DNA of 64,000 nt from Candidatus Krumholzibacteriota bacterium (GCA_024275485.1 JAJRZA010000033.1:26487-90486); one strand, 5' to 3'. Counted from the stretch's first letter, positions 3,590 through 38,052 are shown. Notes: a model not told the origin generated them from the sequence alone. Program-made: numbers and translations.

Positions 3590-4558
3590 TCACTCCGGAT
3601 CCTGCTGCAAATAATTACGCAGCCGGTGACTGGTTCTCATGGTTTCAACAATGCGGTCATTCAAAACCTGGGCAGCGTCGTAACCATAAATTTTAAGCAT
3701 GAAATTCAGGGCGATAACTTCGCTGATAACGGTGATGTTCTTGCCTGGAAAAAGCGGCACGATGACCTGGGGGATTTTGACCCCCAGAATATCCTTGTAC
3801 CTGGTGTCCATGCCAACACGTTCATAGTCGAAGGAGTCATCCCACTCCTGAAGCTGGACCTCGACTTCGATTCTCTTTTGCATGCGAACGGCCCGGATAC
3901 CAAAAATTGCCTGCACATCAATAGGGCCTATGCCCCGTATTTCCAGATTGTGGCGCAGGACCTCACGGTATCGTCCAATCAAGACATCTTCCGCGGTGCA
4001 GGTAATTTCGACCATATCATCGGCCACCAGGCGATGGCCCCGCTCGATGAGATCCAGGGCACACTCGGATTTGCCAATGCCGCTGCGACCGGTAAAAAGC
4101 AATCCCACTCCATAAACATCCACCAGGGTGCCATGGGCTTCGGTAGAGGGTTGTAAGGCAATTCCCAGGAATTGGTTGAGTCCGATGATGAGATCAAATG
4201 CCGGCAGAGAAGACTTGATAACAGGGATATGGTGCTCCTGCACAAGCCGCCTGACCGAAGGTGTAAGATCCTGGTTGCAGGCCAGGAAGATCACCGGCGG
4301 CTTGAGGGCCAAAACCCGCCCCATGGCAAGCATTTGATCATCTTCACTGAGGGTCTCAAGGAAAGAGTTCTCCGATTCCCCGATAACCTGAATCCGGTTG
4401 GTCTGGAAATTTTCCACATAGCCCATCAAGGCCATGCCCGGGCGATGCACGTCCCGGGCATGGATGGGAATTTGTCTTTCAGGACAGTCGCCCAGAAATT
4501 CCAGTTCAAGGGATTTCCGCAGCTGCTGATGGAGACCATGTACGGTCACTTTGAGCAT
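3590..4558 (-). CDS. hprK: HPr kinase/phosphorylase
   Basis: Contains the P-loop GRSGIGKSE and the N-terminus MLKVTVHGL. The start is set at the internal Met matching the family N-terminus; the track ORF extends 19 codons upstream. Confidence 0.85.
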   Translation of the reverse strand: MLKVTVHGLHQQLRKSLELEFLGDCPERQIPIHARDVHRPGMALMGYVENFQTNRIQVIGESENSFLETLSEDDQMLAMGRVLALKPPVIFLACNQDLTPSVRRLVQEHHIPVIKSSLPAFDLIIGLNQFLGIALQPSTEAHGTLVDVYGVGLLFTGRSGIGKSECALDLIERGHRLVADDMVEITCTAEDVLIGRYREVLRHNLEIRGIGPIDVQAIFGIRAVRMQKRIEVEVQLQEWDDSFDYERVGMDTRYKDILGVKIPQVIVPLFPGKNITVISEVIALNFMLKIYGYDAAQVLNDRIVETMRTSHRLRNYLQQDPE

Positions 4559-35013: not shown

Positions 35014-35467
35014 GGAGCCCCCTCATTTGAAGATTAAATTTTGCGAACCTGTGATAATTTCATCAGGAGGGTTCCAGCCCTGCTGGCACTTTCGCTGGCA
35101 GGCGGAACAGGGGGCAGTTTGCAGAAGATATGCCGTGCAATTGGATGGGACCATGATTTGCATGCTGGGGATGCAAGACTAGAGAGGGAAAGGCTTTATT
35201 GGAGTGTGTTTGGATTAGGGAAATGGGAAGCAAAAATTGGTTTGTTTTTTTTGCATATCAGTGTTACGTGGTTGTTGCAGCTGAAGACTTCCGACCGACC
35301 ACAGAGCCCATCGGCAACGTCAATTCATTGTTGCACTTGACGTTACACCAGGGTGATAATTTGAGAATAGAAAACTGGACCTTTTCCACTGGGGTATTCT
35401 AATTCATTGGCATCAAAGCCGGAAGATCCTCGCAACCTGCTGGCCGACCCTTGTTATTCTATGATGA

Positions 35468-35563
35468 TTATGATCCCAACAAAGCCGGTACGGCAATTAC
35501 AAGAACCACCACCGCACAAACCAAAGCGATGACCAAACCACCCATTTCCTTGACCATACTCAT
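35468..35563 (-). CDS. Candidate 31-aa hydrophobic small membrane peptide (MSMVKEMGGLVIALVCAVVVLVIAVPALLGS)
   Basis: A strong ribosome-binding site AGGAGG sits 8 nt upstream of the ATG and the peptide forms a single predicted TM helix. It lies in an AT-richer 850-bp non-coding island between purM and the sigma-54 activator. Confidence 0.35.
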   Translation of the reverse strand: MSMVKEMGGLVIALVCAVVVLVIAVPALLGS

Positions 35564-35609
35564 TTTCCATTCCTCCTGTTAACCGTACCACCCAGCGAAA
35601 ATTCTGACC

Positions 35610-35627
35610 TTACAATTTGGCTCCCAA
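35610..35627 (-). promoter_or_regulatory. Weak sigma-54-type -24/-12 promoter candidate upstream of the small peptide ORF
   Basis: On the minus strand the sequence TGGGAG-ccaaa-TTGTA has the GG and TTG- elements at the correct spacing. The C of the GC dinucleotide is replaced by T, so the match is imperfect. Confidence 0.2.
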
Positions 35628-35869
35628 ATACCGGATTGCTCACAATACCTATATCGTTCAAAAGACATACCCATTGATCTTTTTGTTGATCCCCCCAAAT
35701 GGACAACCAAAAACCCACTCCCTCGCTTGAACTCCTGAGAATATCGCTAGGCTAAAATCAACCCAATATTTTGATATGATTATTTGTTTTCAGGCCTGTT
35801 TGTTTGGATTTCAGGTTGATTTTGGCTTTTGGGAAACCAGCGACATTCTCTTGGGCACAACTTTTGAAA

Positions 35870-36883
35870 TCAAAAAAGAAGTTGTACAGGCATGTCACCT
35901 GCCGCCACATCCCCCAACAAAACCGCCCCAACACCCTCAACCTGAGACAAGTCCAGGCTCTCATCAGCAATGACGACCATACCGATGCCCATGTTGAACA
36001 CACGATGCATTTCCACATCCGAGACATCACCCTTGGCCTGGATCAATTGGAAAATATCCAGGGCCTGAAAGGAATTCGTGTCCACATTCACGCAAAGGCC
36101 ATCAGGAACGACCCGTGGAATGTTGTCATAAAAGCCGCCGCCGGTGATATGGACCAGGCCATGAATGGCTTCACGGCCAAACTTCTGCCACAGGTTGCGC
36201 ACATCACCGAGGTAGCTCTTGTGCACCTTCAGCAGGGCGTCGCCCACCGAAACGCCATTCAATTCCGCGGGAGTGTCGCTGACGGAGTAGCCCACTTTAT
36301 CGAACAACACCGCCCGGGCCAAACTGAAACCATTGGTGTGCAAACCGGTGCTGGGCAACCCCCATACTTTGTCGCCTGCTGCAATGCCGCTGCCGTCGAT
36401 GACGTTTTCCGGCAATACCCGCCCCACAATAGTACCGGCCAGATCAAACTCCCCCGGTCCGTAAACACCGGGCATTTCGGCGGTCTCGCCGCCGAGCAGG
36501 GCACAGCCATTCTCACGACAGGCCGTGGAAAACCCATCGATGATTTCCGGCAGCATCTCTTCTTCCAGCTTGCTGGTCGCAAAATAGTCCAAGAAGAAAA
36601 GGGGTTCCGCCCCCTGCACAAGAATGTCGTCCACACAGTGGTTGACCAGGTCCTGCCCCACTGTGTTGTAGCGGGCGGCCATGCGGGCGATCATCACCTT
36701 GGTACCCACTCCGTCCACGCTGGCAACCATGAGAGGTTCGCCCTCGGCAGCCTGGAAGAGTCCACCAAAGGCTCCCATCTCATTTTTGACACGATGGTCC
36801 CAGGTCGAACGCACAGCTTTCTTGCTGCGGGCCAGGGCGCGGGTGGCTGCGTCGATGTTCACACCGCTGTCGGCATACTTCAT
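35870..36883 (-). CDS. purM: Phosphoribosylformylglycinamidine cyclo-ligase (AIR synthetase)
   Basis: Has the PurM-family N-terminus MKYADSGVNIDA and the blocks GGLF and VDGVGTKV. Confidence 0.9.
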   Translation of the reverse strand: MKYADSGVNIDAATRALARSKKAVRSTWDHRVKNEMGAFGGLFQAAEGEPLMVASVDGVGTKVMIARMAARYNTVGQDLVNHCVDDILVQGAEPLFFLDYFATSKLEEEMLPEIIDGFSTACRENGCALLGGETAEMPGVYGPGEFDLAGTIVGRVLPENVIDGSGIAAGDKVWGLPSTGLHTNGFSLARAVLFDKVGYSVSDTPAELNGVSVGDALLKVHKSYLGDVRNLWQKFGREAIHGLVHITGGGFYDNIPRVVPDGLCVNVDTNSFQALDIFQLIQAKGDVSDVEMHRVFNMGIGMVVIADESLDLSQVEGVGAVLLGDVAAGDMPVQLLF

Positions 36884-36996: not shown

Positions 36997-38052
36997 TCAG
37001 CCTTCGCCCTGGGCACTCTTGAGGGAATACAAGGACAGGCGGCGGTTCAATGCATCCATTACGGCAAAGACAACAGCCTGCTGCTCGTTGTGGAGATTAC
37101 TACAGGAACCAAAAAGTGTCTCACTTTTACGACCTTCAACAAGATCCACGGCGCAAAGAACCACCGACTCTTTGCCCAGATGGTCGATGCGCACTTCGTT
37201 CAGGTGCAAAAGAATAGGGTCCTCTACCAGTTGCATCAATGCATCAAGAGTTGCCCGAGCCACCAGATGGATGGCACTACCGGCGTGGTTGGCCCCTTCC
37301 TGGTTGCCCCGCACTTCCATATCACCGGTGCTGAGCTGTACCTCGGCTCGCACAAGCATATCCGAAGCCATTACACCTACCCCACTGCAAATGACCCTCC
37401 GGGACCCTTCCTCCGTAAGCAGAACGGCAGGAATGGGAGCAGGTTGGTCCAGGGTGGCCGCTGGATCTATTGCTGGATCTATTGCTGGATCAGTTGCCGG
37501 ATCAGTTGCCGGATCAATCAGCGGGGCCGGGGGTATGGCTGCTTCTTCGTCCGAAGTTTCTTTTAGGGGCTCGGCCAAATGGGAATTTTCCAAAAGAGCG
37601 TCGTCCGAAAGTGAATCATCGAGATGGGGGGTATCGTCCATGGGATGGAAAGTCACCGCTGAACCGGTGGATGTTGCCGCGGAAGCTCCGGAGTCTGAAG
37701 CATTCAGATGACTGGGCGCAGAAATCCCATCGTCCGAAATATCCGGCTTATGGTGGTCAGACTTGGCTGCGGTGGAAGCATTGTGTCCAGCTTCGGGTGA
37801 ATCATTGTCCAGCACCTGCACCACACCGATTTTTTTGTAGAAAACGTCAATTTCCAGGCGGGCTTTGAGCAGGCTTTCCACATCGCGCACAATATGACGG
37901 GGCTCACGGTCCATGCCTGCTACGACATGCACTCCCGAGATCTCCCCCTCGGAGTCCAAATCTATTTTGCACTGCAAAACGCCTTTGATGGAACTTATCC
38001 ACCTTTGGGCATCAGATACCCATGCGTCCCGCTCGTTGGGATCCCACTCCAA
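36997..38052 (-). CDS. Hypothetical protein: conserved-looking N-terminal domain (about 85 aa), acidic Ser/Asp/Pro-rich linker with DPAT/DPAI tandem repeats, C-terminal domain (about 150 aa) of unknown function
   Basis: A long ORF with codon usage like its neighbours. I recognise no family motif. Confidence 0.5.
   Translation of the reverse strand: MEWDPNERDAWVSDAQRWISSIKGVLQCKIDLDSEGEISGVHVVAGMDREPRHIVRDVESLLKARLEIDVFYKKIGVVQVLDNDSPEAGHNASTAAKSDHHKPDISDDGISAPSHLNASDSGASAATSTGSAVTFHPMDDTPHLDDSLSDDALLENSHLAEPLKETSDEEAAIPPAPLIDPATDPATDPAIDPAIDPAATLDQPAPIPAVLLTEEGSRRVICSGVGVMASDMLVRAEVQLSTGDMEVRGNQEGANHAGSAIHLVARATLDALMQLVEDPILLHLNEVRIDHLGKESVVLCAVDLVEGRKSETLFGSCSNLHNEQQAVVFAVMDALNRRLSLYSLKSAQGEG
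37460..37519. repeat. Tandem repeat of five 12-nt units (GCTGGATCTATT-like) inside the hypothetical CDS
   Basis: The units are gctggatctatt, gctggatctatt, gctggatcagtt, gccggatcagtt and gccggatcaatc. On the coding strand they encode (D-P-A-T/I)n. Confidence 0.7.

Follow-up and report, generated by a model that had tools for sequence, protein, structure and literature searches.

The segment extending from 35,014 to 35,869 of the window (the whole stretch of DNA analysed here, 64 kb in length) is an 856-bp gap that separates a purM-like gene from the gene of a sigma-54 activator, or enhancer-binding protein (EBP). The features located in and around this gap, together with the homologues of the peptide that it encodes, are collected in Table 1. 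As the first-pass annotation had stated, the gap is AT-richer than its surroundings, with a GC content of 0.447 versus 0.549 across the window, and about six stretches of the 64 kb, this one included, are AT-rich to a comparable degree. Orthologous loci were fetched via full-length homologues of the EBP, which are numerous (50–88% identity) and whose named sources are Krumholzibacteriota/Krumholzibacteriia or unclassified bacteria; an exact sequence look-up of the window EBP returned no record. Loci L001–L080, which were collected by a contig scan with the full-length EBP alignment and share generic AAA+ motifs, correspond to unrelated sigma-54 activators and were left out. In all relatives, the genes follow the same order, i.e., argS-pfkB-hypothetical-purM-gap-EBP-lnt-(optional NUDIX)-purN-folE. 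The length of the gap itself varies, being 308 bp in L081, 411 bp in L085 and 600 bp in L082, while the slot is filled in L090–L092 by a gene for an 821-residue FlgD_ig/LVIVD protein; several metagenome contigs stop within it.

It had been suggested that the island could also encode small RNAs, and none was found there with Rfam. Searches of the whole window at the gathering score gave no match, and those of the island at E ≤ 10 gave best E-values of 1.4–8.7, obtained with eukaryotic miRNA/snoRNA models and unrelated leaders. No known RNA family thus maps to the island in place of the proposed peptide gene, and ARAGORN detected no tRNA or tmRNA. A repeat or mobile-element origin of the island was rejected, since no further copy is present in the 64-kb window and the repeats within the island are only short chance ones. 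The island is best explained as an ordinary yet variable intergenic slot that holds two functional minus-strand units.

Table 1. Features of the purM–EBP region and homologues of the 31-residue peptide. Positions are those of the window unless a related locus is named.
Feature	Position	Strand	Basis or sequence
Sigma-54 EBP, 510 residues	33481–35013	minus	Sigma54_activat + AAA_lid_14 + HTH_8
AT-richer intergenic island	35014–35869	.	GC, Rfam negative, no second copy in the window
EBP mRNA leader, about 97 nt	35014–35110	minus	Alignments and folds
Sigma-54-type promoter cGGCATatcttCTGCA	35120–35135	minus	GG at 35133–35134, GC at 35121–35122
Block AACACTGATATGC followed by an A-run, candidate activator or architectural-protein site	35253–35265	minus	Fixed distance
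Perfect 8-bp hairpin AACGTCAA-N13-TTGACGTT	35315–35344	minus	z = -1.3 for the surrounding 81 nt
31-residue single-transmembrane peptide gene, MSMVKEMGGLVIALVCAVVVLVIAVPALLGS	35468–35563, stop included	minus	Conservation, dN/dS
Shine-Dalgarno sequence AGGAGG	35572–35577	minus	8 nt ahead of the peptide ATG, direct sequence reading
Short blocks GATCAA ... CGATA, candidate promoter region	35652–35679	minus	Invariant columns
purM-like gene (AIR synthase family), upstream boundary of the island	35870–36883	minus	Pfam AIRS + AIRS_C
Peptide homologue, L097	641–736		MSMVKEMGGLVVALVCAVVLLVLALPALLGS
Peptide homologue, L093 (identical in L094)	4226–4321		MSIVREMGGLFVALVCAVVVLVVAIPALLGS
Peptide homologue, L084	cut by contig end		...VVVLVVAVPALLGA
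Peptide homologue, L082	5568–5657		MTMIKEMGGLIVALACALLMLVVVVPALL

Coding evidence for the peptide gene

The 31-codon ORF with a strong ribosome-binding site, described by the first-pass annotation, is present as stated, with an ATG at 35563, a stop at 35468–35470 and an AGGAGG Shine-Dalgarno (SD) sequence exactly 8 nt upstream of the start. Both the ORF and its ribosome-binding site prove to be conserved. Indeed, tblastn recovers homologues of the peptide in orthologous loci with E-values of 1e-14 to 9e-11, at five related loci and in the purM–EBP slot only; they occur in four other Krumholzibacteriota-like assemblies. The resulting sample comprises five homologues, four of them full length and all from one lineage. 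The ATG, the SD and the stop are kept in the relatives, the SD equivalents being CAGGAGG (L097), GGGAGG (L093) and AAGGAG (L082), located 6–8 nt upstream.

The dN/dS ratio of the ORF is 0.04–0.15 by the Nei-Gojobori method, with pS values of 0.60–0.84 that are near saturation. When the window is compared to L082, 13 of 29 codons differ synonymously only, and S/T or V/I/L/M/A exchanges make up all 10 replacements; in the comparison with the L084 fragment, synonymous changes account for 10 of the 12 sense codons that differ. Nucleotide identity reaches 0.66–0.77 within the ORF versus 0.51–0.68 in the 100-nt flanks, the latter range being about the level of unrelated sequence under the same alignment. 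These comparisons indicate that 35468–35563 is a genuine protein-coding gene maintained by selection, and we infer its transcription and translation from this conservation.

The gene has already been called automatically, but without a family or a name. A phmmer search against 1.84 billion representative proteins returned one 31-aa homologue, P0121; an NCBI assembly and a Logan assembly both have it in the purM–EBP slot, called as a 31-residue gene without a name. Each of the four full-length peptides also occurs as an unnamed singleton in a large protein collection. Among family models, the peptide has no credible match in Pfam, NCBIfam or PADLOC; at E ≤ 10, NCBIfam and Pfam give spurious PsbZ, Syndecan and MotA fragments that lie far below the cut-offs. 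When metagenome contigs were searched with a two-peptide alignment as the query, 382 pattern matches were obtained and none was confirmed, while the EBP N-terminal domain as the query yielded 8 loci and one new peptide homologue.

The earlier statement that the island contains no convincing long ORF also holds. The longest one, a plus-strand ORF of 99 codons with a TTG start, has a single weak match, in one related locus, on the opposite strand and over DNA that is conserved there anyway, and for this reason it is not read as a gene. The remaining ORFs of the island were rejected as genes: their weak matches are found only where they overlap the peptide ORF or the conserved promoter and leader of the EBP gene, and such matches are expected wherever the DNA itself is conserved. 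One of the ORFs, antisense to the peptide gene (35451–35582, plus strand), is open in all four loci and has tblastn matches. This frame and that of the peptide share their third codon positions, so that wobble variation alone cannot separate the two. However, the start, ribosome-binding site and stop of the antisense ORF are all non-conserved, and each pairwise comparison gives it the lower amino-acid identity (52–74% versus 66–87% for the peptide frame). The antisense ORF is accordingly best read as a probable shadow of the peptide ORF.

The activator and its control region

The gene downstream had been described as encoding a sigma-54 enhancer-binding protein with an unusual, Trp-rich N-terminal domain. 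The first part of this description is borne out by Pfam, which identifies Sigma54_activat (E = 7e-65), AAA_lid_14 and HTH_8, a Fis-type HTH. The N-terminal domain (residues 1–128) is Trp-rich as stated, but it is not unusual in kind, as it models as a GAF-like fold of the sort present in NifA and Nlh1/2; no Pfam GAF model matches it at the sequence level. On the basis of this structural model, the EBP would be a GAF-type activator equipped with its own sensor domain.

A GG-N10-GC element, with TGCA at -12, is found 109–155 nt upstream of the EBP ATG in 14 of 15 distinct orthologous loci, a count over all distinct loci with sufficient sequence upstream, peptide carriers and peptide-less loci alike. 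These elements match 8–10 of 11 consensus positions, and GG and TGC form invariant columns in the 14-sequence alignment, in which the surroundings are divergent. The window element has three mismatches to the consensus and is convincing solely through this conservation. The presence of a conserved sigma-54 promoter implies that the EBP gene is itself very probably transcribed by the sigma-54 holoenzyme, which in turn implies control by an enhancer-binding protein. The simplest option would be that the EBP product activates its own gene, i.e., positive autoregulation.

An activator-binding site common to all loci was not found, the candidates being lineage-specific only. In the window, the block AACACTGATATGC is located 131 nt upstream of the sigma-54 promoter, and its distance from the EBP ATG is fixed (-250 to -255) in the window, L084, L093, L095 and L097. 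Peptide-less loci carry instead (A/G)TGGGACA repeats at about -145 from the sigma-54 promoter, which are candidate activator sites.

The leader that separates this promoter from the EBP start contains a potential GTTC(C)...(G)GAAC hairpin (35071–35108), a CCCTCC motif (35066–35071) and a G-rich SD, GAGGGGG (35018–35024). The arms of the hairpin are conserved with almost no covariation. Pairing of CCCUCC with the EBP SD (77.5% of cells pair) is no better than in shuffled or slid controls and shows no covariation. Structure-based regulation in the EBP leader is a conjecture.

Transcription, distribution and role of the peptide

A -24/-12-like element had been noticed upstream of the peptide gene. 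The string in question, TGGGAG-N5-TTGTA, is indeed present at 35611–35626 (minus strand), 47 nt upstream of the peptide ATG, but it does not stand as a promoter element. It carries three mismatches to TGGCAC-N5-TTGCA, one of which affects the C at -12 (GT, not GC), a position that is near-invariant in sigma-54 promoters. Matches with two mismatches already occur at chance level in the window (26 observed versus 30 expected), so that a three-mismatch string is not above chance, and GG-N10-GC is absent from the aligned position in L097 and L082. A sigma-54 promoter at this position was rejected on these grounds. The regulatory map is thereby corrected, in that the sigma-54 promoter of the island is that of the activator gene and not that of the peptide gene.

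A scan for sigma-70-type promoters gave matches at chance level. In four-way alignments, the only invariant columns upstream of the SD are the blocks GATCAA ... CGATA, which may mark the promoter region of the peptide gene. In L093, L097 and L082, they lie between the ATG and a terminator-like hairpin that follows purM, with a 12–14-bp stem located 100–140 nt before the peptide ATG. An intrinsic terminator at this place implies that the peptide gene has its own promoter in these three loci. No terminator was detected after purM in the window itself, which makes the transcription unit less clear there than in the relatives. The stretch leading from the peptide gene to the EBP gene showed no terminator-like site in the window, L093, L097 or L082, so read-through from the peptide promoter could reach the EBP gene and, in peptide-carrying genomes, might provide its basal transcription. 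The perfect 8-bp hairpin of the window (Table 1) has no aligned counterpart in the relatives.

The peptide had been described as a hydrophobic single-helix peptide, and its composition agrees well with this description. Its GRAVY is about 2.1, and residues 10–29 form a run of 20 residues that are all apolar, within which Cys16 and Pro26 are conserved; the best 19-residue Kyte-Doolittle mean is 3.1–3.25 in all four homologues. The N-terminus reads M-S/T-M/I-V/I-K/R-E-M-G-G, and the tail consists of two residues or none, the C-termini being PALLGS, PALLGA or PALL. The peptide is predicted to be one transmembrane helix with almost no soluble part, and its composition suggests that it inserts in the cytoplasmic membrane.

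The distribution of the gene was mapped on a tree built by neighbour joining from the first 125 residues of the EBP. Peptide carriers form one clade (window, L084, L097 and L093), and outside it the more distant L082 is a carrier too. The clade also takes in L083 and L095, which are counted neither as carriers nor as peptide-less; the L095 contig starts too close to the EBP to show whether the peptide is present. Peptide-less lineages (L085, L086, L088, L081 and L090) branch between the carrier clade and L082. The simplest reading of this tree is that the gene would be old, lost more than once, and useful but dispensable, the last point following from the existence of several related lineages that do without it.

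Altogether, it is likely that the island as a whole is explained by a gene for a lineage-restricted small membrane protein and by the sigma-54 control region of the EBP gene. By analogy with other single-helix proteins of 25–50 residues, the peptide may assist or modulate some membrane protein as a small subunit of it. We consider it unlikely to be a toxin, or to be tied to the adjacent EBP as an obligatory partner.

The peptide could be tied to the GAF-type EBP next to it, either as a membrane-anchored modulator or signal input, or through basal read-through into the sigma-54 promoter region of the EBP gene. In all five carrier loci, the peptide gene directly precedes the EBP gene and has the same orientation; the lack of a detectable terminator between both genes points in the same direction, as does the distinct block that the window clade, including four close carriers, shares at a fixed distance from the sigma-54 promoter. 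However, the whole neighbourhood is syntenic, so that adjacency carries little information, and the shared block may merely reflect close relatedness. Many peptide-less genomes conserve the EBP together with its promoter and leader, and the EBP has, according to its structural model, a GAF-like sensor domain of its own. Moreover, in L093 and L094, an element that codes for a large serine recombinase breaks into the EBP gene after about 277 codons, while the peptide gene is intact, which argues weakly against strict dependence on the EBP. A tie of this kind consequently appears unlikely. It is likewise unlikely that the two form a functional pair, in which read-through would prime a positive autoregulatory loop or the peptide would modulate the activator. 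If true, such a pair would mean that a small membrane protein provides input to an enhancer-binding protein by a route other than PspA/B/C.

It had also been proposed that the peptide resembles type I toxins, in which case it would depolarise the membrane and its mRNA would be held in check by an antisense small RNA from the island. Type I toxins are shorter than 70 aa and have a transmembrane region (PMC2887945); with 31 aa, one transmembrane stretch, a very hydrophobic composition and a strong SD, the peptide agrees with this part of the proposal. Its gene occupies a long AT-rich gap, with 454 nt between it and the downstream gene, and is found only patchily among relatives, and the purifying selection and fixed position that it displays are also seen in chromosomal type I toxins (PMC2887945). 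Other points speak against the resemblance. Described type I toxins have a polar, charged or aromatic C-terminal cluster (PMC2887945), whereas the peptide ends in PALLGS or PALL. The island, like the 64-kb window as a whole, contains it only once, with no tandem repeat, tandem or multiple copies being frequent but not obligatory in type I toxins. It is 306 nt from the upstream gene, as compared to the intergenic distance of 400 nt or more used in the search for type I toxins (PMC2887945). As for an antisense antitoxin, as far as sequence alone can tell, the opposite strand shows neither a promoter-like nor a terminator-like site, Rfam yields no antitoxin family, and the flanks of the peptide gene are non-conserved, so that no adjacent conserved sRNA is apparent. 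A toxin function is, on balance, improbable.

Finally, that the ORF would be untranslated, what is conserved being either a non-coding element (RNA or DNA) or a real gene in the antisense frame, is very improbable despite the open antisense frame, its tblastn matches and the third codon positions common to both frames, given that the antisense frame lacks conserved signals and is the less conserved in every pair, that the peptide frame keeps its ATG, SD spacing and stop with conservative hydrophobic exchanges only, that a structural RNA would not focus changes at every third base, and that Rfam gives no match.

The preferred reading, a small membrane protein gene beside the control region of an activator gene, has annotation value and offers a starting point for functional work, while nothing in current understanding is overturned. 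Small membrane proteins are systematically under-annotated, above all in uncultured phyla; the peptide, from a Krumholzibacteriota-like lineage, is a clean case validated by comparison, and a family model could be built from it. The position of the EBP gene in a conserved housekeeping cluster (purM ... lnt-purN) raises the question of its regulatory targets.

Comparison with known systems

By fold and Pfam content, the EBP has the same GAF-AAA+-HTH plan as NifA, FhlA, NorR and the Aquifex Nlh1/Nlh2 proteins, and the conserved GG-N10-GC that precedes its gene recalls the sigma-54-dependent promoters of these systems. It differs from them in that its GAF-like domain has no Pfam GAF match and is unusually Trp-rich, and in that its gene sits in a housekeeping cluster.

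KdpF is a 29-residue subunit of the Kdp K+-ATPase, encoded by the first gene of kdpFABC. The peptide is of similar size and likewise consists of a single hydrophobic helix, and the first-pass annotation had found it reminiscent of KdpF-like regulatory peptides. However, its neighbours are purM and a sigma-54 activator gene, and no kdp genes are present in its neighbourhood within the window or at any orthologous locus. No KdpF family match was obtained for the peptide among the NCBIfam models, a library expected to include KdpF, or in Pfam. Membership of the KdpF family was rejected on both context and sequence.

Type I toxins such as Ibs, Ldr/Fst, TisB and ZorO share with the peptide a length below 70 aa, a transmembrane segment, a long intergenic region and a chromosomal, vertically inherited location (PMC2887945). 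The peptide differs from them in lacking a polar or charged tail and a tandem duplication, and neither an antisense RNA gene nor a known antitoxin RNA family was detected for it.

Bacterial inner membranes contain small single-helix proteins such as AcrZ, MgtS and CydX. The 27-aa YohP of E. coli is a further small single-helix inner-membrane protein (PMC7549839). The peptide has much in common with these four: a length of 25–50 residues, of which one transmembrane helix makes up nearly the whole; a gene that stands alone in an intergenic gap, behind a strong ribosome-binding site; and a lineage-restricted occurrence that leaves it easily missed or unnamed in annotation. It differs from them in that it has no sequence similarity to any of them and is confined to a Krumholzibacteriota-like uncultured lineage. 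The closest kind is that of the stand-alone single-helix small membrane proteins, of which YohP is an example, and to these the peptide is an unrelated, lineage-restricted addition.

Variable content of the purM-EBP gap

The interval between the purM-like gene and the gene for the sigma-54 enhancer-binding protein (EBP) holds the peptide gene in the window, and in another relative (loci L090, L091 and L092) a gene for a FlgD_ig/LVIVD-repeat protein lies in its place. Because this gap can house an 821-residue gene instead of the peptide, it behaves as a variable insertion slot. Six metagenome contigs (L083, L084, L087, L095, L096 and the contig with P0005) break off within it, 93-560 nt 5′ of the EBP start, which seems to exceed the expectation for contigs of 6-20 kb; a likely reason is strain-level heterogeneity disrupting assembly. 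On the far side of purM, a hypothetical protein of 303-361 aa is found in every orthologous locus reaching that far; searches of Pfam and NCBIfam with the window copy returned no match.

Coordinates of features in the window and in related loci
Feature	Locus	Position	Strand	Context
Conserved hypothetical protein, 351 residues	window	36997-38052	-	between pfkB and purM
FlgD_ig/LVIVD-repeat protein gene, 821 residues	L090; likewise L091, L092	3183-5648 (L090)		purM-EBP gap
Antisense shadow ORF, 43 codons	window	35451-35582	+	overlaps peptide gene
Region of the interrupted activator gene and inserted element	L093	4713-7020		activator gene
Region of the interrupted activator gene and inserted element	L094	6488-8795		activator gene

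Sequence motifs and an antisense frame

In the peptide-less loci L085, L088, L098 and L100, the motif (A/G)TGGGACA occurs, singly or paired, ~145 nt 5′ of the EBP sigma-54 promoter and at a similar distance in each. The motif may be an enhancer (activator-binding) site. In the clade that includes the window it is replaced by ACACTGATATGC, at -131 from the same promoter.

The frame of the antisense ORF is open in all four homologous loci, among which neither its start nor its stop is conserved. Its wobble positions coincide with those of the peptide gene, a lesson that variation at such positions cannot by itself assign the coding strand.

An element inserted in the activator gene

In one related genome (L093, L094), the orthologous activator gene is interrupted after ~277 codons, and the peptide gene 5′ of it is still intact. 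The inserted element opens with a gene for a large serine recombinase (497 aa), after which come HTH_3, Phage_phiTE_072 and DUF5131 genes. Its appearance is that of a prophage that has integrated here, and it could be an excisable 'regulatory switch'.
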